Shown here: positions 2,030 to 29,452 of the stretch, one piece after another
Layout of the letters: the number at the start of each line of letters is the position of its first letter
How positions within the stretch are numbered: the stretch's first letter is position 1
Origin: a virus
Taxonomy: Duplodnaviria > Caudoviricetes
IMG/VR virus record: IMGVR_UViG_3300046009_001082
Span: 1-29,452 of that record
Length of the DNA: 29,452 nt
Direction: 5' to 3' (one strand)
Translations under genes and position numbers: made by a program
The notes under the pieces: generated by a model
Databases searched by the model: none
What the model was told of the DNA's origin: nothing
Seen by the model: the letters and a program-made list of their open reading frames with translations, nothing else

Positions 2030-5000
2030 TTAGTATTCTTGAATGTTAGAAGGATAGAATCTAGTTAAAGGACCTCCGTATTTCTTTTGGCTAATTTTAC
2101 CTTGTGCCAGCATTTCTTCAGTAGGAGCCTTACCTGAACCTTTGTTAGCTCTAATGTTGTCCCATAATCCACGTTGAGAATAAGAACCGTCTGCACGTTT
2201 AATCATTTGTCCTCCGTTACCGTAGTAAGTACCGTTTTCAAATACATCGTACATGCTGTAATCCATGTGTCCACCGTTAGCGTAGTACTCATCTAAACTA
2301 GAACCGTAACCACTTGCTAAGAATCCTCCACCTGCTTTTTCTATTGTAGTTGGAACAATTGGGGCAGGTTGCATTTGTTCTAACTGTTTATTGTAAGCTC
2401 TTCTGTTAAAAATATCTTGTATAGAACTGTAACCTTTTTGGAACTCTACAGGTCTTCCTTCTTCTTTTGCTCTTTCTAATTCTCCTTGTACTAAATTACC
2501 TTCTTCGTCAAAAGTATTTTCGTAGTAGTTAGGATTGTAGCCAGTAACACCTTGTACTATTTTAGCTATAGGACTAGGATATTGAGTAGCATCTATATCA
2601 CTGATTACAGGAAATGCTAACTGCGTACTTTTACCTTTTTTAAACATAGGTTGATAACCCCATCTAGAAGGCTTGTTCATCTTAGGCAAGTTAAAACTTT
2701 TAGAACGAGCCATATCAAAATCTACATCTATACCTGGCCATTGTGGATACTCAGGACTGTAACTAGGATATTGAACTCCTTCTTGTTCCATACTACCTTC
2801 ATCAATAGTAATAGGGTAAGAAGGATTTTCTTGGCTAGCTACACTACTATTGTTTTCAATGTTTGCAGTATTATTTATTGTATTAGCTAGTATAGAGTTG
2901 TTAATTGCAATTTTTTGATTCAACTGCTCATTAGTTAATAACTTACCAGGAGTATCTTGAATTAAAGGAACTGCAGGAACTATAGGTTGTTGTACAATTG
3001 GTGGTATATTAACAGGTTGTACAGGTTGTACAGGCATTGCTGGTTGCATAGGTGCTTGAGCAACTACAGGCGGTTGTACAGGTGCGTAAGAACTAACAAA
3101 TGTTTGTAGTTTAGCAGGGTCAGCTTTCTTTATTCTATTAGGAATAGAGTTAGCCATCTGCATTACTTGTCTTGCATACTTCTTTTCATTGCCAGCATAG
3201 CCAGCATTTTGTACTAGTTGAGCATGTTCTTGAGCACTCTTTGCATTAAGTACTCCTGCTTTTCTATATCTAGGATTGTCTAAGTAAAAATTAATTTGGT
3301 CTCTTAACCCTTCTTCAGGTGTATCGTAAACTCTCCATTTAGATTTTACAGTCTCACCAGAAGCATTCATTCCTACGTATTTACCTCCTCGTTTAATATA
3401 AGAGTCATTTGCTTTTAACCCACCAAAGTTATTATACTTTTGAGTTAAACCTGATTTACCGTTTCCTGATTCTAATAGTATCTGAGCGGTTACACCCATT
3501 GCATTTAAATCTTCTCCTTCTCTAATCTTACCTGATGCTTTAGCTTCTTCTATTAGTTTAACAACTGTGTCATAGATGTACGCAGTCATATCATTAGTAC
3601 TTAACTTAGGTAGCTTAGGTTTAACTGGCATTGGGTCGCCTGCTCCATCTAAATCTCCTCCTGTAGCAAAGGGTAAAGCTGTAGTATCTCTGTAAATAGG
3701 AGTACCTTGAGATTGATAATAAGTAGGTATGTTTGGTGCTAGACTTCCTCCGTATTTTTTTTCTTGACTTAATGCTCCTACTCCTAATCCAACTGGTACA
3801 GCATAAGGTAATACACTTTTATAAATATTAGGATTAGTCATATCAAACATTCCGTTGTTACCTACAGCTGATTTAAGTTTTCTATTTGTAGGAAAAACTA
3901 ATTCATCTGCTTGATTCCAAGGACTAACTCTTTCTATTCCCCGTGTTTGGTTTCTAATAGCTACATCGTAATCTAACATTTGCTCTTCTAAAGGAACATC
4001 ACCTCGCCAATCCTTTTGTCTATGAAAGTTAAATAAATCATATTCTTTTTTCTGATTAATCAAATCTTCAGCACTTATAGGATTATTACCCTGACCATAT
4101 AATTCGTAAACAGTGGGTTCATAATTACCGTCTTTATGAATACTTTTTGAAGACAAAGAATAACTACTTGCTTTATTTTTATTAGGTGTTGTGTATATAC
4201 CTCTACCTGAATATCCACTATCGCCTAATTGAAATTTAGATTCATCAAAAGTATCAAACTTTTTAGCAGAACCATGATATTGAATAGTAGGACTACCATC
4301 AGGATTTACTAATTTAGAATTACCAAAAGCATTTTTAAAGTTTTGACTATTTTGTTGTACAAATTGTTCAGGTGTTCCTTGAAAAGCAGAACCGTCAGGA
4401 TTTTTCATCCATGTACCATTAGCTTTAGTTTGTTGTTCTATAGCATTGTATTCTTGCATCAATGGTGCATTTTCAGGAATTTCTTTATTCCAGCTAGCCC
4501 AATCTATTTCTGATTTAAAAGAATCTACAGAGCTTTTAGATTTTTTTCCAATAGGTTTTACAATAATATTTTCAAAACCTCCTTCATTACTTTTACCTAT
4601 TACTTTGTATCCTTCAGGTACATTACCAAATATTTCTCTTTCTACTCTCCTATTTATATTATCTGTAACTAATCTTGGGTCTGTGTAATCAATTGCGTGA
4701 AACCCTTCTGCTTCTTTAACGTATTTACTAGGTATAATAACTCTTTGCTTTCCTCTATTTTCAAATCCTATTGTAGCACCGTCACCTAAACTCCAAGACC
4801 TTTGGCTAGGATATGTAATTTTTTGACCATACTTTGTAGGTAATTTAGGATTTGCTCCTGGTGATACATAATAATTATTAATTCTTGTTAAAGGCTGATT
4901 AGCTTGACTTAAATCAGCAGAACTTGTTTGAGTAATATTATCAAGTATTTTACGATACTCTTGATTACTGTTAACAGAGTAAGGAGTGTTTAAATACTTT

Positions 5001-7012
5001 TTTAGTACTTCTGCTTCTTGATCTGTTAATGCTCTTGAATTTTTAATAGCTTCTGCATCAGCTAAAGATTTTTCTACTTTCCAAGCAATAGGTAACGCAC
5101 TATTTCCTGTTGCAACTTGATTGTAACCTTTTTGTAAATACTTACCTGCATCTACTACATCATCTAAAACATTAGTTCCAACTAAAGGAATAGGTGCTAA
5201 ATCTAAAGCAGCCATTCCTAAATTCCCAGCCATATCTGCATATTGACCTTGTTGATAATTTCTATAAGCAGCAGGAAGAGTATTAGTAGCTGCATCATAA
5301 ACACCATAGCCAGTTAGTCCTGCTTGTACAAGAGGATTTGCTAAAACTGCTGGAGCAAATGGAGCTAGTGGTGCGGCTACAGCAACACCTTGAGCTACTT
5401 TAGCTACATTAAGAGGATTGTCCATCCATCTACCGTCTCCATACCAAGACTTTGTTAAATTCTGTTGGTCTTCTGCAGTTGTTTTTGTTGCTTCTCTATC
5501 ATAAAATTTTCCATAGTTATCATAGAAATCTTTAAAACTTGCATCTGATATTTTACCTTGACTGTATAAATCTCTTAAAGCATCTACTCCTTGAGCAGAC
5601 ATTACATCTTTTACTTTAGCATCTTTCCAATTTTCTGAGTCTTTTTTCTTTAATACATTTAAAGCTTTTTGTGCTCGGTCAAAAGATTTTTTTTCTTTTT
5701 CTAACTCTTGTTTGTAAGATATTACTTGTTGCGTTAAAGATGGAATAGAACTTGTACCTTCTAAAGATTGTCTTTGACGTTCTAATCCTAAACTAGTTCT
5801 GTAATTATTATAAGCATTTTTAGCTTGTTCTACTTTTTGAAATAAGTTACCTTGAAGTTTTCTTTTACCTTCATCACCATAAACTGATTGTTCAGGTAAA
5901 TTAACATCTTTTATACAATTTTTACCATCCCAAACATATCCTTCAGGGCAGCCACTACCGCCTTCAGCCATTGTTCTTATAGTACCTCCTAAAGCAAAAC
6001 CATCATAACTATCTTCCGTAGGAATGTAAGATTTATTTTGCCAAGGAAATTCTTGTAGTTCGTCCGCACGTATATCTTGATTAATAAATCTAGGGTCAAC
6101 TTTTAAAATAGGTTTACCCCATTCATCTCTTCTAGCTTTAAACTCTTCTACAGTCTCATCGTAAGTACCTAATAAACTTTTACCTCCTGGAGATAGTTCA
6201 GGTAATCTTTGTGCATAAGTGGTGTCTCCTTGTAAAGGTAGTGGGTTTTCAGGATAAGGTATAGGGTTACGTTTAAAAGAGGGTAAGTTATCTTTTATTC
6301 TATGTAAAGGCATTTTTACTCCTAAGTGTGCTCCAAAAGTAGGCTTGAATTTTAAATTTTCTGAAGAGTTGTCTTTAATAGTACCTGGTGCTATAGGAGA
6401 GTTTATGCTTGATACAGCACCTTCTTCGTAAACAGTAGCTGTATCTTCTACTTCTTTTGCTTTACCAGTAGCAGGTGCGAAGTTTAAATTAGCTCCACCA
6501 AATACAGTAAACGGTGCTTTGTTGCCAAACTTAGGTCTCCATTCAAAATCTCCCCTAGCACCATACATCAAGAAGTCTTCAGCATTACCACCAGCATAAG
6601 GCATTAAACTGCCTGCAAATTTTCCAGGTTTTATTTCTCCTTTACGTCTGTTCTTAGCTCCAAAGTGAAATTGATAACCTGCATCCCAACCTAATACAGC
6701 ACCTTTTAATCTTTTAGCATCACTATTATATCCAGCACCTAAATTTACAACAGCATTTGCTGTGTGTTTTGGATTAGCCATTCCTCTATAACTTGCATCT
6801 AGTCCACCTGTCAAAGCAGTTCTTCCTGCAGGTGCGTTATAATTATAACCAATGTGAGGTTTTAAAGTCCATTCTTTCTTTTTACCATAGGTTCCTTCTA
6901 AACCTAATTCCATACTTGTTGTATTAAAACCTAACCCTGTAGTAGGATTAGTGTAAAGAGGTTGTAAGGTTAGGAAAGGATTTTTAGGCTTAAGTTTTTT
7001 AGGTATATCCAT
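2030..7012 (-). CDS. Large multidomain cargo/ejection protein: beta-barrel-like N-terminus, hydrophobic hairpin, R-S-E ART-like domain, ART-PolyVal-like domain, GH73 muramidase
   Basis: 1660 aa, directly after the muzzle gene. GH73 motifs AQILLESG/NNFGGLKA/AGYAGN at ~3130-3600. YHGS...GRGIYTT...LKSAVGNNGMFD at ~3815-4510. PLTR...RSWS...VEREI at ~4550-5030. Alternating Gly/aromatic strands at ~6310-6975. Confidence 0.75.
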   Translation of the reverse strand: MDIPKKLKPKNPFLTLQPLYTNPTTGLGFNTTSMELGLEGTYGKKKEWTLKPHIGYNYNAPAGRTALTGGLDASYRGMANPKHTANAVVNLGAGYNSDAKRLKGAVLGWDAGYQFHFGAKNRRKGEIKPGKFAGSLMPYAGGNAEDFLMYGARGDFEWRPKFGNKAPFTVFGGANLNFAPATGKAKEVEDTATVYEEGAVSSINSPIAPGTIKDNSSENLKFKPTFGAHLGVKMPLHRIKDNLPSFKRNPIPYPENPLPLQGDTTYAQRLPELSPGGKSLLGTYDETVEEFKARRDEWGKPILKVDPRFINQDIRADELQEFPWQNKSYIPTEDSYDGFALGGTIRTMAEGGSGCPEGYVWDGKNCIKDVNLPEQSVYGDEGKRKLQGNLFQKVEQAKNAYNNYRTSLGLERQRQSLEGTSSIPSLTQQVISYKQELEKEKKSFDRAQKALNVLKKKDSENWKDAKVKDVMSAQGVDALRDLYSQGKISDASFKDFYDNYGKFYDREATKTTAEDQQNLTKSWYGDGRWMDNPLNVAKVAQGVAVAAPLAPFAPAVLANPLVQAGLTGYGVYDAATNTLPAAYRNYQQGQYADMAGNLGMAALDLAPIPLVGTNVLDDVVDAGKYLQKGYNQVATGNSALPIAWKVEKSLADAEAIKNSRALTDQEAEVLKKYLNTPYSVNSNQEYRKILDNITQTSSADLSQANQPLTRINNYYVSPGANPKLPTKYGQKITYPSQRSWSLGDGATIGFENRGKQRVIIPSKYVKEAEGFHAIDYTDPRLVTDNINRRVEREIFGNVPEGYKVIGKSNEGGFENIIVKPIGKKSKSSVDSFKSEIDWASWNKEIPENAPLMQEYNAIEQQTKANGTWMKNPDGSAFQGTPEQFVQQNSQNFKNAFGNSKLVNPDGSPTIQYHGSAKKFDTFDESKFQLGDSGYSGRGIYTTPNKNKASSYSLSSKSIHKDGNYEPTVYELYGQGNNPISAEDLINQKKEYDLFNFHRQKDWRGDVPLEEQMLDYDVAIRNQTRGIERVSPWNQADELVFPTNRKLKSAVGNNGMFDMTNPNIYKSVLPYAVPVGLGVGALSQEKKYGGSLAPNIPTYYQSQGTPIYRDTTALPFATGGDLDGAGDPMPVKPKLPKLSTNDMTAYIYDTVVKLIEEAKASGKIREGEDLNAMGVTAQILLESGNGKSGLTQKYNNFGGLKANDSYIKRGGKYVGMNASGETVKSKWRVYDTPEEGLRDQINFYLDNPRYRKAGVLNAKSAQEHAQLVQNAGYAGNEKKYARQVMQMANSIPNRIKKADPAKLQTFVSSYAPVQPPVVAQAPMQPAMPVQPVQPVNIPPIVQQPIVPAVPLIQDTPGKLLTNEQLNQKIAINNSILANTINNTANIENNSSVASQENPSYPITIDEGSMEQEGVQYPSYSPEYPQWPGIDVDFDMARSKSFNLPKMNKPSRWGYQPMFKKGKSTQLAFPVISDIDATQYPSPIAKIVQGVTGYNPNYYENTFDEEGNLVQGELERAKEEGRPVEFQKGYSSIQDIFNRRAYNKQLEQMQPAPIVPTTIEKAGGGFLASGYGSSLDEYYANGGHMDYSMYDVFENGTYYGNGGQMIKRADGSYSQRGLWDNIRANKGSGKAPTEEMLAQGKISQKKYGGPLTRFYPSNIQEY

Positions 7013-17655: not shown

Positions 17656-18108
17656 CTAGGTAAGTGTAATAATCAATAATTCAGCTCCTGAAGCAGAAGA
17701 ATCATAAGAAATAGATGCTAATGTATTGTCAATACCTCCTGCATCAAAATTAATTGTTTCTCCTACTTTTAATGTAACACCTCCAACAGTAGCGTCAACA
17801 GTTCCTACACTAGCAAAAGATACTGAATAAGCTCCTGCGGCTACAGAGGAATTAGAAGAAGTTCTTAAAATTGTAGGAGTTCTTTCAATAGCATTACTAT
17901 CTACTGTAATAATATTACCACCATCTTGGATATTAACAGCAGCTGCTCCAGCAGGATTTTGAACCGTTACGTTTTCTAATGCTGTTAATGTTGCAGGACT
18001 TAAATCAACAGGTCCTATTGTATTTACTTTTACTAACAGTTCTTCTTGTCCTGTTACTTGTGCTCTAGTATTATTTTTGCCTACAATGGCTACTTCTCTT
18101 TGTGACAT
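17656..18108 (-). CDS. Putative structural protein
   Basis: 150 aa, V/T/A/S-rich, containing VNIQDGGNIITVD and LKVGETINFDAG. Ends TAG TAG TGA. Confidence 0.6.
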   Translation of the reverse strand: MSQREVAIVGKNNTRAQVTGQEELLVKVNTIGPVDLSPATLTALENVTVQNPAGAAAVNIQDGGNIITVDSNAIERTPTILRTSSNSSVAAGAYSVSFASVGTVDATVGGVTLKVGETINFDAGGIDNTLASISYDSSASGAELLIITLT

Positions 18109-18123
18109 TGTTATATTTTTAAG

Positions 18124-18375
18124 TTATTTATTTAATAGTTTTTTTATTGTGCTGTATGTAATAGTGTTGTAATTAGTAGTGTTATTAGCTATATCTCTCG
18201 GGTCGTAACAATTTAGTATTTCTAATACTCTTCTTTGTTCTTTTAAAGACTCTTGAAGTTTACATACTTCTACTCCAAAAATTAGATTATTTACATACTC
18301 TAGTACACATTTAGAATATTCACATTGTTTATTCCAAACTTCTAGTTTATAACATTGTATTGCTTCAGTAGACAT
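18124..18375 (-). CDS. Small Cys-containing helical protein, possible tail hub component
   Basis: 83 aa with 5 Cys, in the hub/fibre cluster. Confidence 0.55.
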   Translation of the reverse strand: MSTEAIQCYKLEVWNKQCEYSKCVLEYVNNLIFGVEVCKLQESLKEQRRVLEILNCYDPRDIANNTTNYNTITYSTIKKLLNK

Positions 18376-18385
18376 TTTTTTATTG

Positions 18386-18904
18386 TTAAGCTATGACAAC
18401 TACTCTTACTACTACACTTAAAGCAGAGCCTGCAAAAGTACAAGTAATATCACCTGTTACATTACTTATAGTAACTGATAGTCCACTATTAGTATCGTTT
18501 GCTAATGTCCATAAATTAACAAAAGGTCCTGAAGAAGGTCTATACCAAACTTGTACTTGTAAATTATTAAAACCTGCGGCAACACTACCAAACAAACAAC
18601 CGTTAGGTACAGCAGTGCAAGATGTTAATTCTGTTCTTGTAATAGCACAAGTACCACTTTCTAAATTAGAAGTAAAATCTTTAACAAATTTAAAAGCATT
18701 TGTGCCGTTAGTACCATTAGTACCTGCTGAACCTGTAGCACCTGTTGCTCCAGTTGGGCCAGTTAAATCAGGCGAAGTATAACTAGTGCCATCAGTATAA
18801 TAGATAGTAAAAGTACCGTCTTCATTGTTTACTGTTGAGCTTACTCCTACTCCGTTTGTTCCTTTAAAAAGAGTTACTTCATTGCAATTATTACAAGTAC
18901 ACAT
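18386..18904 (-). CDS. Short collagen-repeat fibre protein
   Basis: N-terminal MCTCNNC, then NNEDGTFTIYYTDGTSYTSPDL and a Gly-X-Y run GPTGATGATGSAGTNGTNGTN, then a C-terminal beta domain. Confidence 0.7.
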   Translation of the reverse strand: MCTCNNCNEVTLFKGTNGVGVSSTVNNEDGTFTIYYTDGTSYTSPDLTGPTGATGATGSAGTNGTNGTNAFKFVKDFTSNLESGTCAITRTELTSCTAVPNGCLFGSVAAGFNNLQVQVWYRPSSGPFVNLWTLANDTNSGLSVTISNVTGDITCTFAGSALSVVVRVVVIA

Positions 18905-18924
18905 AGTTAGTTGTTATTTATTTA

Positions 18925-19767
18925 TTAGCAATTACCTGAACACCCACAACTTGTGCAACCTACAATAGTCTCACAAAAAGTTGAAGCAGCGTTTAGTATG
19001 TTATCAGCAGTATCAAAGTCAGCACAAGCAAAAGCACTTTTGATTCCATAGATAAATATTTCCATTTGGTCAACCTGCTCCTTTAACTTGTTTACTGCTG
19101 GCGTATCACAAGCATTAATTAACTTTAATACTAATGCATCTTTACAATTACATAGATTGCATATAAACAATACATGTTGAGTTTCATTAGTATATATCTC
19201 ATCTTCAGGTCCTATAACTGTATAAACTAGTTGGTAAATCCCATCAGGGTTATTCCAAGTAGCTTCAGTTAAAATAGGAAAACTCCCAGGTACGGGAGCA
19301 GAGACTACATTTGCATATAAATCAATGCCTGCAGTATTGTCTTTTAGTATGTATTGAGAAGTTACAGAAACTCCGTTAATTACAGTTAAAGAAATAGGTT
19401 GAGAAATATTAACTTGGTAAGTACCTCCGTTGTTAGTTCCGTTACCTGTAAGGAATGCTGTGATTACTGTTCCAGGAGCAATTCCTGGAGCTATTAGTGC
19501 TTGACCAATAGCAAAAGTTCCTGATAAATGCGTTACATCTGTAAAAACGTTACCAACAATGGTTCCGTTTCCTGATGCTAATATTGCAGGAGTCTGTTCT
19601 AAGTTATAGAACGCTACGCTTGCGTATTGTACTTCGTCTGTATCTATGTTAGGCGAACCCCAGCCTCCTGTATTAGTAGTTATTACGTAAGGATTAGTTT
19701 GCTCTGTAAAAGAAATTAGATTGCATTTACCTGATAAACTACTAGATATTTTAGGGAGTAGAGCCAT
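18925..19767 (-). CDS. Putative tail hub/fibre-attachment protein with Cys-rich C-terminus
   Basis: NTGGWGSPN, PDGIYQLVYTV, CNLCNC and a terminal CTSCGCSGNC. It follows the auxiliary capsid-like gene, as crAss hub genes do. Confidence 0.6.
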   Translation of the reverse strand: MALLPKISSSLSGKCNLISFTEQTNPYVITTNTGGWGSPNIDTDEVQYASVAFYNLEQTPAILASGNGTIVGNVFTDVTHLSGTFAIGQALIAPGIAPGTVITAFLTGNGTNNGGTYQVNISQPISLTVINGVSVTSQYILKDNTAGIDLYANVVSAPVPGSFPILTEATWNNPDGIYQLVYTVIGPEDEIYTNETQHVLFICNLCNCKDALVLKLINACDTPAVNKLKEQVDQMEIFIYGIKSAFACADFDTADNILNAASTFCETIVGCTSCGCSGNC

Positions 19768-19783
19768 AACAATTTTATATATT

Positions 19784-19791
19784 CAAAAGTA
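19784..19791 (-). promoter_or_regulatory. Candidate Bacteroidota sigma70 -7 element (TACTTTTG)
   Basis: TAnnTTTG match immediately after the terminator U-tract, 16 nt upstream of the ATG at 19767. Confidence 0.45.
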
Positions 19792-19849
19792 AACAAAAAA
19801 ATAGTAGTGCCCACCACATAGACAGCAAAATTTCTGTGGTGGGACTACT
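19791..19849 (-). terminator. Rho-independent terminator after the 431-aa gene, with a large 16-nt loop
   Basis: Arms agtagt-g-cccaccaca (19803-19818) and tgtggtggg-actact (19835-19849). On the minus strand the stem is followed by ATTTTTTTGTTT. Confidence 0.75.
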
Positions 19850-19862
19850 GGGGGTGGAGAAT

Positions 19863-21158
19863 TTACTCGTCAAAATCTGCTGCAGTAAGACCTAAAGCTA
19901 CTACAAATGTTTCACCATTGTTAGCTGTAGATGTGTCTAAGTCTCCTGAAGAATCTAAATTAAGATATACTACTACGTTACCTCTTGCAGTTGAAGCTGA
20001 AACTAATCCGCCAATATTCTCTTCCCAAGCAATGTTAAGAGCAGAGTATTTAGAAGTAGCAGCAGTGTTACCACCTACTCCTGGGATTTTAACAACTTGG
20101 TCACGAGGTATAGAAGGAGTAGCCAATTGGTTATTTTCTCCTTCAAAACCGTAGTTCATATATTCGTCCATAGCAACTTGTTGCCATACACCATTACCAT
20201 TACGAGCACCAGTAAGCAAAGTAACTAAAGTAGACGTATCTGAGAAAGTTACATTGAAACGGTTAGCGTAGTAATCTCTAAATGTGTTAACATTAAATGG
20301 AGCAGCAACACCTGTTAAACGTACACCGTAGTCACCAGGAGTTCCTACAATACCTACTTGAGAAGCTGCTGTAGTACCACCTGCTACTAAACCTGTATCA
20401 CCTTGGTAAGCATAGTTTAAAGTAACAGACGTAGTAGAAGAAGCTGTAATTTTATAAGCTACTCCTAATGAACGTAAGATACCACCTACAGTTGGAGCTG
20501 TAGCTGTAGAAGCTGCACCTGCACTGTCAGTAAACAAAGCTACTTTAGAGCCTTTAGTAAAAGATAAGTGTGTAGCAGTTCCTACCCAGTCAGCTTGAGT
20601 TCCAGCAACTAATGCTTCAAACTTCAAGTAACCATTAGCAGGCTCTTGTGCAAAGTTTTTCAAACCATTTGCAACTAATGCAAAAGCCAATTCTTCTTGA
20701 GTACCTGTAGCACTAGTTTTAACAGGTCCAGCAAATAAACTCATAGGTTGAGAACGGTTAGCTGCATCGTTATCGTGCTTACGAACTTTGATAAAGAAAT
20801 CAGAGTTGTTAGCTACAGGAAGAGCTCCAGTTGTACCATTATAACCAACAGTAGTAACTTGCTGAACAGCAGGTTTGTGTTTAGCAATAGTAAACTTAGT
20901 AGTTCCTTTAGTAATAACTGGTGATTTCATTAATGGCTCATTAGCTCCTTTACCTTGTACTACAAAGTATTGGTCACCATTAGCTAACGCTGCATATTCA
21001 GTGTTAGACATTCTACGTAACCCTAAGTCACATAATACTACTGCACCTGCAGGTAAATTTGCATTAGTGATAACTGTACCTACAGACGGCAATGCTGTAG
21101 TAGCTACATTCACGTCGTTTAGCACTACGCTAAACACATTGTTTGCTTTTCTTAACAT
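19863..21158 (-). CDS. Auxiliary capsid / decoration-type protein (crAss conserved structural gene)
   Basis: 431 aa, A/T/G/V-rich. Third gene after the MCP and followed by a strong terminator, consistent with a high-copy virion protein. Confidence 0.6.
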   Translation of the reverse strand: MLRKANNVFSVVLNDVNVATTALPSVGTVITNANLPAGAVVLCDLGLRRMSNTEYAALANGDQYFVVQGKGANEPLMKSPVITKGTTKFTIAKHKPAVQQVTTVGYNGTTGALPVANNSDFFIKVRKHDNDAANRSQPMSLFAGPVKTSATGTQEELAFALVANGLKNFAQEPANGYLKFEALVAGTQADWVGTATHLSFTKGSKVALFTDSAGAASTATAPTVGGILRSLGVAYKITASSTTSVTLNYAYQGDTGLVAGGTTAASQVGIVGTPGDYGVRLTGVAAPFNVNTFRDYYANRFNVTFSDTSTLVTLLTGARNGNGVWQQVAMDEYMNYGFEGENNQLATPSIPRDQVVKIPGVGGNTAATSKYSALNIAWEENIGGLVSASTARGNVVVYLNLDSSGDLDTSTANNGETFVVALGLTAADFDE

Positions 21159-21187
21159 TTTATTTTATTTTAAATTATTAATCTTTT

Positions 21188-21952
21188 TTATTCTAAATCT
21201 TTGAATCCTTCTATTAAAGGAACTTTTTGCTCTTTAACTCTTTGTAGTAATAAGTCTGCTGCAATATCTACTATAACTACGTGAGTTGAAGTATCTAATT
21301 CACAGTTTCTTTGATTAGCAGAAGTATCTCTATCTACTACTATATCTAGTGGGTTTTTAACATATCTAATATGATAATTAGTAATGTTAAAAGTCTTATC
21401 AGTAAACAATTCGTGACGTTTAGCAGTTGCAGTAGCACTAGGTAAAATACCAGAAGTACTTCTTGAAAACTCAGAACGCCAAACTCTACAATCTCCCGTA
21501 GTGTTGTAAAACGGTTTTTTGTATTTGCTCCAATTAAATCTTTGCATTTCATTGTGAGCAATTGTTACTATGTACCCAATAATAAACTCCTCTGTTCCAC
21601 ATATCTTTTTGTCTATAGTACATTCTTCGTAAATAGTGTACATGTGGTCGAGCGGTAAATCAAAGAACTTTCCTATAACATAATTATTCGTAATAACACC
21701 TGTTTGAGAAGCAGAAGCTACCAAGTTGTTGCCGTCTTTAACTAGTGCAGCTAATCCTTGGTTTCTTATTTCAATTTCTTCAAAGCCTTTGCCTTTTCTA
21801 TTGTTTACTTCATCAAAAAACTTTTTAACGTATAGCTGTTGTGCTTCGGATAATACAGAAGTGTAATCAAAATCTTCATATCCAGGGGAACCAAAACTAG
21901 ATACTCTATCTACTTTTTCGTCCAGCAAGTTAGCCATTTCGTTAGCCGTCAT
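21188..21952 (-). CDS. Ring/adaptor structural protein (crAss conserved gene)
   Basis: MTANEM...SPGYED...SVLSEAQ...GFEEIE...LAALVK, YHIRYVKNP and CELDTSTHVVIVDIA, typical of the crAss gene two positions after the MCP. Confidence 0.7.
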   Translation of the reverse strand: MTANEMANLLDEKVDRVSSFGSPGYEDFDYTSVLSEAQQLYVKKFFDEVNNRKGKGFEEIEIRNQGLAALVKDGNNLVASASQTGVITNNYVIGKFFDLPLDHMYTIYEECTIDKKICGTEEFIIGYIVTIAHNEMQRFNWSKYKKPFYNTTGDCRVWRSEFSRSTSGILPSATATAKRHELFTDKTFNITNYHIRYVKNPLDIVVDRDTSANQRNCELDTSTHVVIVDIAADLLLQRVKEQKVPLIEGFKDLE

Positions 21953-22890
21953 TATTTACGTTTTAATAATTCAATTTTTCCTTTTATTCTCATTTTAGAT
22001 TCTTGGTTATCAGGATTTAAAAGATAATTGATAGTATCATTTAAATCTCCTAATTCAGCACCGTTATCTAAAACATATCTTTTTTCTCCTTTACGAATTA
22101 TTGCACCAGCTTCAATAGCTTCTTGTACAAAAATACGCTCGTCATACTGCGGATGATTAACTACTTCTAAGAAATATTTAGGGCTGTTATCAACAACATT
22201 TAATACTTCTCCTTTTAGCCATTCATCAGTAGCAGTAGCAGGAATAGTTCTACCTAGTGATTTAATAAATCCTATGATAGAAGAACGACTGTTTGTAACC
22301 TCAGCAAACTTAATATAAGCTTGAGATTTTACGTTAGCTTCTTCAAGTTTTTGAGATGTAACTTTGCTTTCATCTACAATCATAAACTCGTAAGTAGCTT
22401 TTAATGTTCTTTCATCGTAAGATGGAGAGATAAGCATTCTATTAGAAATCAATATTAGATACTTTAACATATCTAGTGAATGATTTAAATTTAATGTCAT
22501 CCCTTCTTTAGTAATAACTACTCTACCTCTACGATCACTTCTCCAGAAGTTTTTATCTGCTTCTAGTGTAGGGTTTAAGTCTACTCCTAACTCTTTTTCA
22601 AAGAACTCTTTTTGGGTCATTCCGTTAGGAAATGATTCCATATACTTTTGGATTTTGACTCTTTTTTGGTCGTCCAAAATAACTTTTACTCCTCCTCCTT
22701 TTAATTCACTATTAAGTGGTACTTGATAGCTTCTTTTTACTTTGTTATACATAAAAGGGTCTTTTTGTTTTTCTTGACCTTTTACTAATAACGTGCTCCA
22801 TTTTCCTGAAGACTCTACTGCTTTTACTGAAACTAATCTATTTTGTAGAAAAGTACCGTAAACAGTTTTTTGTTTTTCTGCTGTTTCCAT
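21952..22890 (-). CDS. Conserved crAss-like protein encoded immediately after the MCP
   Basis: 312 aa with FFEKELGVDL...NFW...LNLNHSLDMLKYLIL...ATYEFMIVDE and EAIEAGAIIRKG...YLLNPDNQE. Confidence 0.7.
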   Translation of the reverse strand: METAEKQKTVYGTFLQNRLVSVKAVESSGKWSTLLVKGQEKQKDPFMYNKVKRSYQVPLNSELKGGGVKVILDDQKRVKIQKYMESFPNGMTQKEFFEKELGVDLNPTLEADKNFWRSDRRGRVVITKEGMTLNLNHSLDMLKYLILISNRMLISPSYDERTLKATYEFMIVDESKVTSQKLEEANVKSQAYIKFAEVTNSRSSIIGFIKSLGRTIPATATDEWLKGEVLNVVDNSPKYFLEVVNHPQYDERIFVQEAIEAGAIIRKGEKRYVLDNGAELGDLNDTINYLLNPDNQESKMRIKGKIELLKRK

Positions 22891-22892
22891 TT

Positions 22893-22905
22893 TTTGCTGT
22901 CTTAA
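22893..22905 (-). promoter_or_regulatory. Shared leader motif TTAAGACAGCAAA before the 312-aa gene
   Basis: mRNA reads UUAAGACAGCAAAAA-AUG. An identical 13-mer is at 25666-25678. Confidence 0.6.
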
Positions 22906-22930
22906 ATTATTGTATTAAATTCTCCGTTTT

Positions 22931-22964
22931 AAAAAAGTCCTCCTCTTTTTAGGGAGGAGAACTT
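22931..22964 (-). terminator. Rho-independent terminator after the MCP gene
   Basis: Minus strand AAGTTCTCCTC-CCTAAAAA-GAGGAGGACTT-TTTT: an 11-bp stem with one G-U pair, ending in a 6-U run. Confidence 0.7.
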
Positions 22965-22977
22965 ATTTAAATTATTA

Positions 22978-24489
22978 TCATCTTTCAACTACTAAGCGTA
23001 AGTCTACAACTTTAGTTGGGTCTTCAATCATCATACCACCCCATTTCTGGAAATGTACTGAGTAACCGTCAACTGGTGAAGCTACCATTTTAGGTGAACC
23101 TTTACCTGCAGGAGAGAATGGGTCTCTCATACCTGGGATATAAGCCCAATTGTAATCAGGAACTCCTTTAGGTTTAATACGGTAGATACCTGCATTATCT
23201 CCATAATCCAAAGCAAGGATTCTGTGTGATTCTACGATACCTTTTCCGTCAGGGTGACGTTGTGGGAAGTAAACATCATCATCGAAGAAATCAACGATTT
23301 CAACCATAATAGTAACTCCATTGTACCATTCGTAAACATTCCATTGTGGCTCCATTAAACCTTTAGTGTTTTTACCACCTAAGTTTCCTGGGTTAGTGTT
23401 AGAAGTTAAGAATTTGTCAGAGATTACTGTAAATTTACCACCTGCTGATTTAGCATTAATTTGTTTAGAGATTTCGATAGCACCAAACTCACCTGTTAAC
23501 AAGTGGATAGTACGTTTTCCACGCTCTAATTTACCAACACCCATGTCTAACAACATTTCTAAATGCCAGTCAAGGTCATAAGTATTATAGTAATGAACGT
23601 TAGATGGAGCGATTTGCTCAAAGAAACCTGCACCTGATTCGATAGCATATTTCGTTTTGTCATCTTTGTTCAAGTATTTATGGTCAGCAGTCCAGTTTTT
23701 CTTTCCGTACATCAACATACGTGCGAACATTTCTTCGCATTGGTGATGTGCTACTAAATCTTGGTAGTTAATCCATACAGACTCAGATTGTCCTTTGTAG
23801 TTAAAACCAAATTCTAATGGCTCATTTTTACCTTTATTAATAGTGTTACCAGCTACTTCATATTCCATTCTCATTGTTGTAGGACGGTTTTCCATTCTCC
23901 AAGGAGATGTGAAGTAAGGTTTAGCACCTTGATAAGATAATGTAGAAGGACTTAATGAATAGTATTTAGACCAACGAGTTCCAATTGCTAATTCCTCAGA
24001 AGGAACAGTTTTGTTTGGATTGTCAGTTACTAATTCAACTTCAACTTTGTAACGAGAACCAGCATCCATAGCTTTTTTAACTAGTAAGTGGTAATCATCA
24101 ACTTCTCCTCTTAACACGTTTGTTTCTTCAAACAACGGTTCGTCAAAGATTAAGTAGAAACGCTCTCCGTTTGCACCTACGTTAGCAGGGAAAGTTCCAG
24201 CAGAAATAGTAAGACCATTGATTGTTTCAGCGTCTACTAAAGGCAAGTTTTTATCTTGTTGTCCTTGTAGCATCCAGTTGTAAAAACCATTTTCTTGTTC
24301 TACTTCTTTAACAGGAAATCTGTCAACGAACTCACGTAATTTACCTTGTAAATTAGTTTTGTAAATCTCTTTGATAACATTGCTAATTAACTGAGGCTTT
24401 TGTTGGTATAAAGAATAGAAGTGGTTATCTGTTACCAGACCATTGTAATCTTTCGCTTCATACCTTTGTAATGGAAGTAATTGAGCCAT
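22978..24489 (-). CDS. Major capsid protein (crAss-like, HK97 fold)
   Basis: 503 aa after portal and scaffold. Contains GLVTDNH, YNWMLQG, IESGAGFFEQI, TGEFGAIE, HPDGKG..ESHR, YIPGMRDPFSP and VDGYSVH...GMMIEDPT. Confidence 0.9.
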   Translation of the reverse strand: MAQLLPLQRYEAKDYNGLVTDNHFYSLYQQKPQLISNVIKEIYKTNLQGKLREFVDRFPVKEVEQENGFYNWMLQGQQDKNLPLVDAETINGLTISAGTFPANVGANGERFYLIFDEPLFEETNVLRGEVDDYHLLVKKAMDAGSRYKVEVELVTDNPNKTVPSEELAIGTRWSKYYSLSPSTLSYQGAKPYFTSPWRMENRPTTMRMEYEVAGNTINKGKNEPLEFGFNYKGQSESVWINYQDLVAHHQCEEMFARMLMYGKKNWTADHKYLNKDDKTKYAIESGAGFFEQIAPSNVHYYNTYDLDWHLEMLLDMGVGKLERGKRTIHLLTGEFGAIEISKQINAKSAGGKFTVISDKFLTSNTNPGNLGGKNTKGLMEPQWNVYEWYNGVTIMVEIVDFFDDDVYFPQRHPDGKGIVESHRILALDYGDNAGIYRIKPKGVPDYNWAYIPGMRDPFSPAGKGSPKMVASPVDGYSVHFQKWGGMMIEDPTKVVDLRLVVER

Positions 24490-24524
24490 TTTGTTTTTTT
24501 TAAATTGTTAACGGTATATATTTA

Positions 24525-25664
24525 TTATTTCTTATTAAAAGCACTTTCTAGCATACTTAGTAATCCTTCAGTTTTCTGTGATGTTTCTACTGATGTGTTA
24601 CGTCCTACGCCTCTTTGTTCCTCTGAGGAAATGATTTTATCTAATTCATTTACCGCAGCTGTTTTTGCTACACTTTTTAATTTAGTAATGTCAGGTTTAA
24701 ACTTACCTTGCTTATCTAAATTAAATAACCCAATTGTATCGTAGTAGTTGATTAGCATTTCAAATTCTACTGGGTTTCTTTTTTGCTTATACATTAAACT
24801 ATTATACTCTTGACCTGAGTCGTCTTTGAATACAGGGTTTAATATGTTAGCTTTCAATCTATCTTTTGATACTTTATTTAGGTTTAACCCATCAATAAAA
24901 GCATCTCTAGCATCTATGTTAGTAATCAAATTCTCAAAAGCTTTATTTTGAGCTTCGATTTCTGCTTTAGTTCTCTCTTCTTTAAAAGCCTTAGCTTCTT
25001 TTACAAAGCCTTGTGCTTGATTCTTTAATTCAGGAATAGCTTTTGCTGCTTTGTCTGCTAGCTTACCTACAGACTCTGCATCTTCTATTGCTTCTAAAGC
25101 ATCTTGGTCAGAGAACTTTTTAGACTTTAGTAAATCAAAGTAAATCTGTTTTTGCAGGTTTACGTCTTTTTCTAAAGCTTCATCATCAATACTATCAAAG
25201 AACTCTAATCTTTGGGCCATTACGATAGCTTGGTCAGTTTCGTCAAATGCATCTTCGATTTCTAAAAATCTTTTCTTTACACTTGGCATACTTTTTTTCC
25301 AATTCTCTTCTGCCTTTTTAAAATTAGTTTTTACTGTTTTATCGACTAACGATTTAATCGAATCTAAAGTTCCTGGTAACTCATCTAGTTTCTCAACATC
25401 TTCTGCTGTTAAAATACCTGCGTTAACAAGTTCTTTCATTAATCCTTTGTAAACTGCTTCAGTTTTACTGATAGCTTCTGCTGAGGATTCTGTACTTTCA
25501 ACTTTAGTAGTTTTCTCTACAGGAGTTATTACTTCCTGTGGGTCTGTTACTTCAATATCTTCTTCTCCAGTTTCTTCTTTGTTAGATTCAGCTACTGCTG
25601 AATTTAATTCTGAGGGAGTCATTATTTGTAGTCCTTCAAATAACTCTTCGTTCTCTGTACTCAT
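24525..25664 (-). CDS. Putative scaffolding protein
   Basis: 379 aa, acidic N-terminus, helical/coiled-coil composition, located between portal and MCP. Confidence 0.65.
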   Translation of the reverse strand: MSTENEELFEGLQIMTPSELNSAVAESNKEETGEEDIEVTDPQEVITPVEKTTKVESTESSAEAISKTEAVYKGLMKELVNAGILTAEDVEKLDELPGTLDSIKSLVDKTVKTNFKKAEENWKKSMPSVKKRFLEIEDAFDETDQAIVMAQRLEFFDSIDDEALEKDVNLQKQIYFDLLKSKKFSDQDALEAIEDAESVGKLADKAAKAIPELKNQAQGFVKEAKAFKEERTKAEIEAQNKAFENLITNIDARDAFIDGLNLNKVSKDRLKANILNPVFKDDSGQEYNSLMYKQKRNPVEFEMLINYYDTIGLFNLDKQGKFKPDITKLKSVAKTAAVNELDKIISSEEQRGVGRNTSVETSQKTEGLLSMLESAFNKK

Positions 25665-25665
25665 A

Positions 25666-25678
25666 TTTGCTGTCTTAA
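25666..25678 (-). promoter_or_regulatory. Shared leader motif TTAAGACAGCAAA before the scaffold gene
   Basis: mRNA reads UUAAGACAGCAAAU-AUG. Confidence 0.6.
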
Positions 25679-25752
25679 TTGGTTACAATATTAAAATTAT
25701 TTTTATAAAGTGGTAGTACTAATTGTTATAAAACTCTTATAGTCTTATAGCT

Positions 25753-28197
25753 CTATTTTGCTCCACTAGCTCTTTTAGCTTGTGCAGCAATAGCTTTTTT
25801 CTGTAATTCTTCTTTAGCTCTATTAGCTCTAGCTGTTTCGTCTAACTGTTGTTGCTTTAAATTAAGTTGTTCTTGTTTGTAATTTTCATCAACTTCAGTA
25901 CGACGTAAGTCTAATAAATCTCCTACACCGTTGTTATCAGTGTCTGTGTTATTAGTACTATTTCTATAGTTGTTGTTCTCCTCTTTAATACTTGCAATAA
26001 GTATACTAGATTCTATTCGTTCTCTTTCTACTGCAATTTCGTCGTCGTGTTTTTTAATCTCCCATTCTCTTTGAACTTGCTTATCTTGCATTGCTAACTT
26101 ATTAGCTTCATCTTGTTGAGCTAATTGTTGTTGTTGCATTGCATCATTTTGTTCTTTAATTTTCTTAGCAGATTCTTCTAATTTTCTAGCAACATCTTGT
26201 ACAGATTCCGATTGGCTGATAGCAATTAAATCTGATATAGTAGCTTGACCATTTTGAATAGCTGCTTGAGATAATGCTTTAAGGTCGTTAAACAATTGTT
26301 GGTCATTAGAAGAGTTGGACAAGTGTAAGTCATACTCAGTAGCACAAAATTCGTCAAAGTGAGTTATAAGTTGTTGCCCCATATCATCTAATAAGTATTG
26401 TCCTTTTTTAGGATTAGTCTTATAAGCATACTTACAACACTCTAAGAATTTTGTAAGAACACGTTTACGGAAGTTGTTATCAATAGCAAACCATTTTTCT
26501 GTAATGTGAGAAGTCTGTGCTACCTCACGTTCTACATTATTAACAGCTTCTCTATTTTGTATTTGTCCTTCTCTTGCTCCAGTTACACCTGCTAGTTTAC
26601 CTAGTGTGTTTTCTATGTCTAACATTAAGTTAGTGTACATTCCAATTTCGTTAGGATCACCTACTTGTATTTGTTGAGCTGTTAGTGTATTGAAAGCTCC
26701 TGCAGATTTTCCTTGAGAAGGCCCTTTAAGAATTTCATTAGTAGGGTCTAACCAAGCAAATTTGTTGATAGTTACATATCTCATCCACTCTTTAGGGTCC
26801 CAACCTGATGGTACTAAGGAACTATTAAGTGCTGTGAAAGAACCTTTGTAGGTAGCAATAGCTAGTTCACGCTTGTAATAAGCGATGTCGTAAGAATAAG
26901 CTAACGGCTTCATCACATCCATTAAGGATTGAACCTTGTAATCATTGGTTGAATTTACACTACCTACATAAGGTGGAGTACCTTTTGATTTATTAACTAA
27001 GGATTTAGAAGCATAAGGCACAGGTCTCATCAATGTATATACGTGGTCAGCTATCTTAGTACCTTCCATCCATTCATTAACCCATATCCATTTTACAGAT
27101 TCTCCTAATGTTTTGTTTGCTTTATAATCTTCAGGAACATAGTCTTTTTGCTCGTTACCGTCTTCATCAAAGTATGTAAGTTCTCCTATTTTTCTTCTAG
27201 ACCTCCAACATACTTTTAAGACTCTCACGTTACCGTAAGTATCAAAAGCACCTGCAAATGTACGAGTACCCATTTCGTTAGGATGAAAGATATTAAGAGC
27301 ACCTTGTTCTCCGTAGTAGTCATATACAGAAATATCTCTGTTTAATCCTATACCACCACCTGAACCAAGTGATGCATCTACTTTACCTCTTTCTAAGAAA
27401 TCAATATCTTCTGGTCGTAGTACGTCCCAATAATCATCTATTATTTGTCCTATTGACTTATAACCATATTCTACAATAATGTCTGCATCTTCGATGTACA
27501 TTGAGTTTCCTCCCATTGTGTACAAGTTCATCGGGTTTACTCTCCTCATTACAGGATTGCCTCCTAATACTCCACAATACATTATCTCTTCTCCAGAAGT
27601 AAGTAGGTCTTCAAAGGTTCTCAGGAAAGTAAAATCAAAATCACCTTCTTTGTATTCTTTTTTTAGAATCTTGTTAGCAGTAATCTCTGCAATATCTTGG
27701 AATTGGTAAGTCTTGTACTTTTCTAATTGTAGCAGTCTTTTCTGTATCTCTTCGTCACTAATAGAAGTAGTTTGTATAATGTTATCTAGTTCTGCTTTTA
27801 TAGTATCAGTTAACGTTTGCTCTTTACGAGAGATACTTTCAGAATCATTAGAAGATATGTAGGCTTTAAAGTCTTTCTTTCTTTTAGCGTATTCTCCTAA
27901 CAATAGATTAATCTTAGTGTTTTCTATTCCTATATGTTGGAAAGAAGCAGGTAAAGATTCTAAGTCTAAGTTATCAGGATTGATAAACTTTTCAAAATCT
28001 TTAGAGCTAATGATGTTAACTCGTAGATTGTAGTTGCTTTTTTTATTTTTAAAGTTAGAACGTAGGTTAACGTCCGAGGTTAATAAGTGCTCTGCAAAGT
28101 CTATATTCTTTTTATACCAGTGGTCTGTTTTTTCTGCATCAGATAGTTTTTGTCTTGGAAAACTAATATAACCTTGGATTTTTACAGGAGAGCTCAT
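25753..28197 (-). CDS. Portal protein (crAss-like)
   Basis: 814 aa directly after TerL. FPRQKL, KINLLLGE, WVNEWMEGTKI, SLMDVMKP, GVTGAREGQI and a Q-rich coiled-coil C-terminus. Confidence 0.9.
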   Translation of the reverse strand: MSSPVKIQGYISFPRQKLSDAEKTDHWYKKNIDFAEHLLTSDVNLRSNFKNKKSNYNLRVNIISSKDFEKFINPDNLDLESLPASFQHIGIENTKINLLLGEYAKRKKDFKAYISSNDSESISRKEQTLTDTIKAELDNIIQTTSISDEEIQKRLLQLEKYKTYQFQDIAEITANKILKKEYKEGDFDFTFLRTFEDLLTSGEEIMYCGVLGGNPVMRRVNPMNLYTMGGNSMYIEDADIIVEYGYKSIGQIIDDYWDVLRPEDIDFLERGKVDASLGSGGGIGLNRDISVYDYYGEQGALNIFHPNEMGTRTFAGAFDTYGNVRVLKVCWRSRRKIGELTYFDEDGNEQKDYVPEDYKANKTLGESVKWIWVNEWMEGTKIADHVYTLMRPVPYASKSLVNKSKGTPPYVGSVNSTNDYKVQSLMDVMKPLAYSYDIAYYKRELAIATYKGSFTALNSSLVPSGWDPKEWMRYVTINKFAWLDPTNEILKGPSQGKSAGAFNTLTAQQIQVGDPNEIGMYTNLMLDIENTLGKLAGVTGAREGQIQNREAVNNVEREVAQTSHITEKWFAIDNNFRKRVLTKFLECCKYAYKTNPKKGQYLLDDMGQQLITHFDEFCATEYDLHLSNSSNDQQLFNDLKALSQAAIQNGQATISDLIAISQSESVQDVARKLEESAKKIKEQNDAMQQQQLAQQDEANKLAMQDKQVQREWEIKKHDDEIAVERERIESSILIASIKEENNNYRNSTNNTDTDNNGVGDLLDLRRTEVDENYKQEQLNLKQQQLDETARANRAKEELQKKAIAAQAKRASGAK

Positions 28198-28218
28198 AGT
28201 AAAATTTTATTTAAAATA

Positions 28219-28226
28219 CAAATCTA
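28219..28226 (-). promoter_or_regulatory. Candidate Bacteroidota sigma70 -7 element (TAGATTTG) before portal
   Basis: TAnnTTTG match that includes the TerL stop codon, 21 nt upstream of the portal ATG. Confidence 0.35.
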
Positions 28227-29450
28227 TGAATAATAATTTGAATTAAAAGTCTCTATTGGTTTCTTTTTTAGTACTCCCATTTTTTCAAAATAAGGATTAT
28301 CTAAGAATGTTTTTACTTGCTCTACTTTTTGTGTTACCTCTTTGTACATAGTACTATCTAACCACATTAACATAATTAATGCTGACACTCTATCAAAGTT
28401 ACCATCAGGATTCCACATCACTAACTCTGTTAACATTGCTGAAGAATAAATAGTTTCATATACTCTAGTCTCTGATACTGTTGATATTCTTTCTTGTAAC
28501 CAAGACTTAACCATATTACGTCCCTCAGAGTTAATAGAGCCAGATGCATTAATACCTTTAGAAGTATTAGTACCTGCTTTGTAAGTATCAGTTGAACGTA
28601 GTTGGTAAGGAGTTTCTGCTAAGAGATACGTGCACTTGTTTTGGTCAAAATAGTTGTATAAACCAATAAGGTTTTTCTCATACATTCCCATAGCATTGTA
28701 ATACATTAGTAGCTTACGACAGATTTCATAAAAATCTTTAGCTTCACCTGTACGACCTGTGTATTCTGCTACTATTTGTCTAGTGAATCTATTCATTACT
28801 ACTATACAAGGTAGTGAGTCAGTAGTAGCCTTGTCCTTATCAACAACGTCTATTCCTGCAATGTACACTCCTCTGTTGATAGTACCGTCGGGATTTCTTT
28901 GGGGCTTAGCCCATACTTCTACACATCCTTTTTTATCATCATTCTTGTTTAATGGAAACTTTCTAATAGGCTTCTCATCTTGTATTGTTTCAAAGTCAAC
29001 AGTGCCATCTTGTGTAAAGATTAGTCTACCTTTAAAAGAAGCATCTGTGTATTTCTTGTATTTACCTCCTTCAACTTCAGCTAGTTGTTCTTTCAGTAGT
29101 AGTGTTGGAAAGAAAGCTCCTTCTAATACAAGGAAAGCTTCTGAAGGAACCATTGGTCCATTGATAATTTCTGTTTGATATACGGTAGGATCAGGTGACT
29201 TCTTAGCATCTTTACGTCTATTTTCAATATACATATTAGCTAATAACTCGTCAGTTACTTTGTTTTCTCCAGTCTTAAACTCATTGAGTGTTTTAGAATA
29301 GGGCACAAAATAGCCTATTTGTCCTCGGTGTTCCCATACATCTTCAAAGTCTATACAATTGTAATCTTGAGGATTACGAAATATAGATTCTGCATATAAT
29401 GCAGCTCTACCTGATACTAAACCACCTGTACCTAATGCCCATATTACTAT
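28224..29450 (-). CDS. terL: Terminase large subunit, C-terminal part (5' end outside window)
   Basis: The frame stays open beyond the called GTG to the window edge (IVIWALGTGGLVSGRAALYAESIFRNPQDYNC...GYFVPY). RNase H-like nuclease motifs YIAGIDVVD, IVAEYTGR, MYEKN and GNFDRVSAL. Confidence 0.92.
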   Translation of the reverse strand: MVIWALGTGGLVSGRAALYAESIFRNPQDYNCIDFEDVWEHRGQIGYFVPYSKTLNEFKTGENKVTDELLANMYIENRRKDAKKSPDPTVYQTEIINGPMVPSEAFLVLEGAFFPTLLLKEQLAEVEGGKYKKYTDASFKGRLIFTQDGTVDFETIQDEKPIRKFPLNKNDDKKGCVEVWAKPQRNPDGTINRGVYIAGIDVVDKDKATTDSLPCIVVMNRFTRQIVAEYTGRTGEAKDFYEICRKLLMYYNAMGMYEKNLIGLYNYFDQNKCTYLLAETPYQLRSTDTYKAGTNTSKGINASGSINSEGRNMVKSWLQERISTVSETRVYETIYSSAMLTELVMWNPDGNFDRVSALIMLMWLDSTMYKEVTQKVEQVKTFLDNPYFEKMGVLKKKPIETFNSNYYS

Positions 29451-29452
29451 CC

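Follow-up and report, generated by a model that had tools for sequence, protein, structure and literature searches.

A conserved terminator-type hairpin whose loop is complementary to two start regions in the capsid gene module of a crAss-like phage

The DNA analysed here is a stretch of 29,452 bases from a tailed phage (IMG/VR record IMGVR_UViG_3300046009_001082; hereafter the window), the long genes of which all lie on the minus strand. A PHROGs search identified the terminase, the portal and the major capsid protein, and homologs of the terminase, portal, capsid, ring and auxiliary capsid proteins follow each other in crassvirus order. The window represents the structural module of a crAss-like phage, the relatives of which form a freshwater group. 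Two of the genes, referred to as targets, carry a short tag, GACAGC, at their start. In the direction of transcription the relevant genes are:

24525–25664, minus strand: 379-aa gene, homolog of phi14:2 g092 (E = 2e-09), occupying the position of crAss001 gp31; target 2
22978–24489, minus strand: major capsid protein gene, the start of which has no tag (GACAGC in 0/41)
21952–22890, minus strand: 312-aa gene, homolog of crAss001 gp33 and phi14:2 g090 (~30% identity); target 1
21188–21952, minus strand: 254-aa tail ring protein gene (PF25710, E = 3e-19), its start overlapping the stop of the 312-aa gene
19863–21158, minus strand: 431-aa auxiliary capsid protein gene, crAss001 gp36-like (structure model against 7qof_a, E = 8.5e-09), source of the 3′ element

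Sequence comparison of the 431-aa protein gave no match and its likeness comes from predicted structure alone; the model matches a 333-residue crAss001 capsid chain, and gp36 has that length. A Pfam search assigned no family to the 312-aa or the 379-aa protein. From its position and character we infer that the 379-aa protein is the scaffold. The 312-aa protein harbors a C-terminal RecA-CTD-like domain (structure comparison Z = 9.7, rmsd 1.6, 60 aligned), and its homologs bear the label 'dsDNA binding domain'. RecA-CTD-like domains bind DNA without sequence preference. Virion proteomics notes in the phi14:2 record cover g093, g091, g089 and g088 but neither g092 nor g090, and the available main text of the crAss001 structure paper does not name gp31 or gp33; on this indirect evidence the scaffold-like and gp33-like proteins both appear to be non-virion proteins. 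The same text gives nine copies each of the capsid and auxiliary proteins per asymmetric unit and describes the rings as dodecamers. The ring gene start lies −1 to 11 nt from the 312-aa stop in 79/80 loci. Elsewhere in the module, a 1660-aa protein (2030–7012, minus strand) and a 285-aa protein (1168–2025, minus strand) contain the same endolysin-family domain, in each case likely a muralytic domain of virion cargo, and a short CTATA-n-CTATAG repeat or palindrome lies 3′ of the portal stop (window ~25735–25752, minus strand; 39/47 distinct regions).

The elements around the hairpin and the two tagged starts are:

25686–25693, minus strand: promoter-like element TAATATTG, recognised by motif, upstream of the scaffold leader
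25666–25675, minus strand: target site AGACAGCAAA before the scaffold AUG, core 25669–25674
22931–22962, minus strand: terminator-type hairpin 3′ of the major capsid gene, presumably subject to read-through
22916–22925, minus strand: second target site, GGAGAAUUUA, in the 312-aa leader; GAGAA in 48/54 distinct leaders
22892–22902, minus strand: target site AGACAGCAAAA directly before the 312-aa AUG, core 22896–22901
22881–22886, minus strand: degenerate in-frame copy of the tag at 312-aa codons 2–4, with one mismatch in the window; perfect GACAGC in 38/54 distinct starts
19856–19865, minus strand: seed 2, UAAAUUCUCC, which overlaps the 431-aa gene's stop codon; TTCTCC in 41/42
19803–19849, minus strand: terminator-type hairpin 3′ of the auxiliary capsid gene, 15-bp stem and 16-nt loop
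19821–19826, minus strand: seed 1, GCUGUC in the loop, inside an 11-nt match (19820–19830) in the window genome
19795–19802, minus strand: U-tract 3′ of the stem
19784–19791, minus strand: TAnnTTTG promoter-like element before the next, 280-aa gene; at most 90 nt from the seed in 20/42 distinct loci

The hairpin was described in an initial annotation of the window, and refolding reproduced its dimensions with a folding energy of −28 kcal/mol (z = −5.0). On the mRNA strand the stem pairs 19849–19835 with 19818–19803 with one bulge, and the loop spans 19834–19819. A GC-rich stem on the transcribed strand is followed by a U-tract, as in intrinsic terminators; the hairpin is missing from a terminator scan because its 16-nt loop exceeds the 8-nt limit of the scanner. 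In the minimum free energy (MFE) fold the loop contains two weak internal pairs, and in the local ensemble the unpaired probability of two seed bases is only ~40%. At gathering score Rfam gave no match at the hairpin and two chance-level matches elsewhere in 18000–29452. Four public RNA runs yielded only scattered, fragmentary contigs, without information on ends or strand.

The complementarity reported in the annotation, 11 bp with the 312-aa start and 10 bp with the scaffold start, was recovered as well. Counted on both strands, AGACAGCAAA occurs exactly three times in the window, at 19820–19829 (plus), 22893–22902 (minus) and 25666–25675 (minus), and GACAGC in the same three places only, which is rarer than the 7.3 expected. 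When the loop was shuffled, 25 of 100,000 shuffles gave a complement of at least 10 nt at two or more of the 26 start regions in the window. A further match had been overlooked: seed 2, UAAAUUCUCC at 19856–19865, pairs perfectly over 10 bp with GGAGAAUUUA at 22916–22925. A third copy, at 171–180, falls within coding sequence. The target sites fall within the ribosome footprint, either 2–14 nt 5′ of the AUG or in the first codons.

Among close relatives, counted as distinct sequences (312-aa protein 74–100% identical in one of the locus searches), GACAGC is present at 36/36 scaffold-like starts and 54/54 312-aa starts, where it lies in the leader in 52 and in the first codons in 38. It was found at none of 198 starts of capsid, portal, ring, auxiliary capsid and 280-aa genes. 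The complement GCTGTC stands 3′ of the auxiliary capsid gene in 42/42 distinct sequences and 3′ of the capsid gene in 0/60. In 31 aligned elements GCUGUC is invariant while loop lengths vary, and MFE folds of the 42 elements leave all six seed bases unpaired in 29, five in 3 and four in 10. The 13 consensus stem pairs are held in 99.5% of 403 cells, and seven of them changed on both sides in a compensatory manner. G·U occurs in 31 of the 403 cells and A·C in none, which argues that the stem folds on the mRNA strand. Codon choice is also constrained: Thr-Ala near the 312-aa start is encoded as ACA GCA in 49/49 and the Met-Thr-Ala start of the ring gene uses ACA in 0/45, each against a background of 37% ACA, with both counts sharing ancestry among sequences. 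At the ring gene start (21944–21952, minus strand), an ACG variant of codon 2 (8/46 distinct starts) would pair with the seed via one G·U at −9.8 kcal/mol and is a possible weak third target. For helix 2, formed by seed 2, a one-base indel across 47 rows matches between element and leader as 3A/3T in 11 and 2A/2T in 29, with one row discordant and six without the site; on a quick tree this represents one or two events.

The part of the pairing that is conserved is its 6-nt core. Flanking complementarity showed no covariation (p = 0.05–0.72), the core comprises 6 bp with little more in members L013, L014, L070 and L125, and the shortest helices have 6–7 bp. When up to 7 kb per locus was scanned without bias for the sequence that best complements the two starts jointly, the terminator loop ranked first in 29/33 loci of the window's clade. 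Seed 1 is invariant inside this clade; a hairpin pattern scan permitting any loop (120 loci, 26/64 collection parts) detected no homolog with another seed, and no anti-tag was found within the scaffold coding sequence of clade members. GACAGC is not avoided in coding DNA genome-wide (47 seen and 34 expected on the capsid strand). In eight near-complete relatives the tag lies at −25 to −1 of 16/680 called genes, and these genomes, read as separate stretches, contained no further conserved targets. Sporadic copies precede other genes at G005:11686, G007:79092 and G001:21989, the homologs of which have no tag or do not exist; they are possibly recruited targets or chance occurrences.

The capsid gene itself has conserved features of its own. 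Its leader contains a CGT(Y)TAA(C/T)A motif (window 24505–24514, minus strand) in 38/41 distinct A-rich capsid leaders, a possible processing or enhancer site; no consistent complement to it was found in eight relatives. Capsid terminator loops (L013, L025 and L048, for example) display an apical motif, GAGUUGAACGCC, GAGUUGAUAGCC and variants, in 54/60 distinct cases. This motif is absent in the window's lineage (22931–22962) and is a candidate protein site controlling read-through.

GACAGC is lacking in phi14:2 and crAss001. With the phi14:2 capsid protein as query 80 loci were found; 62 of these and five named phages gave 67 usable records, of which 53 distinct ones were kept. IAS virus was left out of the counts owing to ambiguous bases, and p-crAssphage and the Intestiviridae are outside the set. 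Relatives were sampled at ~30% and at 74–100% identity, and intermediate clades are missing from the set. In these Steigviridae-like loci (including crAss001, phi14:2 and DAC15), the scaffold and gp33 homologs share the tags GGAGA, GGAAGA or GGAAC, and the tag complement is located 200–290 nt inside the scaffold coding sequence, its class switching together with the tags. In a genome search, five of six genomes had the complement ~230–275 nt into the scaffold gene. Loci with a UCUCCC element have GGAGA at both starts (31/31). With UCUUCC, GGAGA is absent (0/17) and the non-coding gp33 leader has GGAAGA in 16/17; part of the GGAAGA matches arise for protein reasons, from Ser-Ser codons and Met-Glu starts. 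AGUUCC (phi14:2, L297) is accompanied by GGAAC at both starts (2/2), and three other elements outside these classes match their own gp33 leaders over 8–11 nt. Within the element proline is encoded by CCC in 31/36, compared with a background of 2.5% and with 0/127 for CCC after TCT elsewhere. The mean duplex energies with the two targets are −15.0 and −16.2 kcal/mol, versus −4.8 to −7.7 kcal/mol with four control starts. A joint-complement scan within 7 kb found the in-gene element best in 49/53 distant loci, with DAC15 among the misses.

In phi14:2, crAss001 and loci related to them, no conserved complement occurs in the terminator loops that follow the auxiliary gene, and inspection of cr53 and Fpv2 by eye revealed no evident element of this kind. 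On a capsid tree of 51 rows the element classes need three changes, to which the window's clade adds a further case, so the evidence amounts to a handful of coordinated events and not to 53. The annotation had named loop–leader covariation as a check; between clades seed and tags do change together, in few events. The phi14:2 relative L297 carries a tRNA-Met(CAT) gene (L297:4997–5070) between its capsid gene and gp33 homolog, and in L085, L086, L327, L328 and L351 endonuclease-bearing insertions split the capsid genes or an extra ORF separates capsid and gp33 homolog.

The arrangement of promoter-like elements bears on how the module is transcribed. We take TAnnTTTG to be the promoter consensus. 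Upstream of g092 homologs, promoter motifs are reported. The distance from the scaffold tag to the promoter-like element is fixed at 16–17 nt in 35/36, and no TAnnTTTG or TAnnATTG element occurs within 40 nt in any 312-aa leader (0/54). Read-through from the scaffold promoter is therefore more likely, and the separate 22.9–19.8 kb transcript envisaged in the annotation finds no support. For a discrete 3′-UTR-derived sRNA with its own internal promoter, the 75 nt upstream of the element were inspected by eye and showed no conserved TAnnTTTG.

How these matches act is the point on which explanations differ. Chance, a short core with A/U-rich flanks in an ordinary terminator discovered post hoc, is the least credible, given the invariant seed in loops of variable length, the target specificity and the shuffling result. 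We consider it scarcely more plausible that an RNA from the opposite strand displays GACAGC in its loop as a decoy for a leader-binding protein. The complement of the hairpin does also fold as a hairpin in the window, but the 31 G·U cells become A·C mismatches on that strand and none arise the other way; moreover, the opposite side has no U-tract and the in-gene form has no such hairpin. That the leader tags are phage-specific recruitment signals for ribosomes or proteins, akin to the SD-like GGAG of gut phages, with the complements being secondary, is improbable. GGGAGAA does sit at Shine-Dalgarno (SD) distance in many Steigviridae-like leaders; however, tags also occur 3′ of the AUG, vary in spelling (GACAGC, GGAAC, GGAAGA) and track a complement containing a rare codon, and Bacteroidia ribosomes are reported, in the accessible text of two papers, to be blind to SD sequences (PMC7797042, PMC9976891).

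Two further explanations deserve more weight, though each is unlikely. The tag could be an orientation-independent DNA site, as the annotation had also offered, bound by a phage protein such as the 312-aa protein and controlling two promoters, that of the scaffold and the one 3′ of the hairpin, as well as the protein's own gene. The RecA-CTD-like domain and the label of its homologs suit this idea, as does the operator-like spacing in the scaffold leader; an altered protein specificity would make sites covary too, and the wobble counts in seed–target helices (G·U to A·C of 9:6, 8:7, 6:4 and 0:2) do not separate RNA from DNA. Fixed placement relative to a promoter is confined to the scaffold leader, however: the 312-aa leaders have no promoter-like element, and the seed lies 31–61 nt from the next one, which is absent in 22/42. 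At the starts the tag invariably reads in sense orientation, and the remaining copy, which has two unrelated locations, invariably in antisense. That copy sits in a loop whose hairpin forms at the RNA level, and each of the four or five tag spellings would require a new protein specificity. Orientation, RNA hairpin and missing promoters thus weaken the DNA-site idea, the scaffold spacing still speaking for it. To about the same small degree we entertain RNA pairing with the other outcome, activation or processing, in which the message is stabilised, a nuclease guided or ribosomes delivered to non-SD starts. Complementarity and covariation fit pairing of either sign, and a kissing helix of 6 bp may lack the strength to stop a ribosome. 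On the other side, the sites cover the A-rich stretch and first codons on which Bacteroidia ribosomes rely, according to the available part of one study (PMC13000457), and the targets are genes expected to need less product.

The element is conserved, and the comparative evidence strongly supports masking of start sites by RNA pairing as its likely function. The annotation's central proposal, that the loop pairs with two start regions, is supported by target-specific conservation, the mRNA-strand hairpin, the scan of the window's clade and the distant seed changes, and is narrowed to the 6-nt core. We judge it probable that RNA–RNA pairing masks the two starts and lowers the output of the scaffold, the gp33-like protein and the coupled ring protein relative to the high-copy capsid proteins. 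A single late capsid transcript would begin at the scaffold promoter, be stopped in part after the capsid gene and have its 3′ end at the predicted hairpin. GCUGUC in the loop and UUCUCC at the auxiliary stop codon would then pair with the scaffold-like and gp33-like start regions, across the A-rich stretch and first codons, and so block ribosome loading at the two tagged starts; pairing could join parts of one transcript or two separate transcripts, or a processed 3′ fragment of ~70 nt could carry it out. The output of the ring gene would follow that of the 312-aa gene, whose stop its start abuts, and the capsid and auxiliary genes would be left free of masking. The purpose would be stoichiometry, capsid and auxiliary proteins being needed in equal, high copy from the message that also encodes both targets; masking two starts could achieve this because the targets appear to be non-virion proteins and the gene for the 12-mer ring is coupled to the 312-aa stop. 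Seed 2 starts no more than ~10 nt from the auxiliary stop codon in 42/42, so terminating ribosomes could gate it.

Masking of start sites by RNA pairing is a known kind of control, of which a terminator-loop seed with two phage targets appears from the sequences to be a new variant. In Staphylococcus aureus icaR mRNA, a short 3′-UTR motif pairs with the initiation region of its own mRNA and blocks initiation (PMC3868564, in part). Both cases place a complement of the initiation region in a 3′ element of the mRNA, and here as there the complementarity is to specific targets. The icaR target, however, is the Shine-Dalgarno region of a single gene and involves RNase III cleavage, whereas the phage operon is polycistronic, has two non-SD tags 3 and 5.8 kb upstream and combines a loop seed with a second seed, all known here from sequence alone. 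The Min Jou interaction of MS2, in which a 7-nt coding stretch pairs with an initiation region ~300 nt away until passing ribosomes open it (PMC11339067, in part), resembles the in-gene form of the Steigviridae-like phages; seed 2, at the stop codon, is possibly a further parallel. MS2 is an RNA phage in which Min Jou shuts the downstream gene only; in these DNA phages the in-gene element matches the start of its own gene and one 2.5 kb downstream. The terminator loops of the sRNAs SdsR, RseX and ArrS act on fepA through regulatory sequence in the loop, which the accessible text calls unusual, likely without base pairing and with a need for Hfq and RNase E (PMC11979758). They share with the phage hairpin a terminator loop bearing regulatory sequence, but the loop described here is a perfect, conserved complement. 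CpxQ and DapZ are 3′-UTR-derived base-pairing sRNAs. CisR, which acts on the CTXphi cep mRNA, is another (PMC13250501, in part). Like these the phage seed lies near a shared terminator and is aimed at initiation regions; unlike them it is phage-encoded, directed at its own operon and seen as sequence, not as a discrete RNA. The scaffold protein of P22 is subject to translational autoregulation by protein-mediated feedback. That too is a post-transcriptional limit on scaffold synthesis, operating through a protein where the crassviruses have a covarying antisense seed and a second target; our literature search found no paper on the P22 autoregulation. Compensatory change of seed and target is present between clades, in few events, and in the helix 2 indel, and not in the flanks.

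The search likewise found no RNA regulator of crassvirus late genes, and the part of the crAss001 paper available mentions neither antisense RNA nor gp31. It is poorly mapped how a tailed phage obtains hundreds of capsid subunits yet few assembly and ring proteins from a single message, and a base-pairing terminator loop would differ from the published terminator-loop regulators, which are likely non-pairing. Because the in-gene form is found in cultured phages (crAss001, phi14:2, DAC15) and a key base lies at a synonymous codon position, the idea is directly testable. More tentatively, and at somewhat less than even chance, crassviruses may have in common an antisense module of changeable location by which the stoichiometry of the capsid operon is set. 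The two non-virion genes would in each clade bear a start tag specific to that clade, the complement having moved between the scaffold coding sequence (crAss001, phi14:2, DAC15 and relatives) and the auxiliary capsid terminator loop (the window's clade) and the old UUCUCC/GGAGAA pair having been kept as the second helix. The capsid protein of the window's clade is only ~30% identical to that of the Steigviridae, so a common origin of the two placements is a hypothesis. The in-gene form, opened by elongating ribosomes, would be a ribosome-gated switch competing between two starts. If true, such a module would give phages of hosts without Shine-Dalgarno pairing a chaperone-independent translational control, encoded partly by codon choice.
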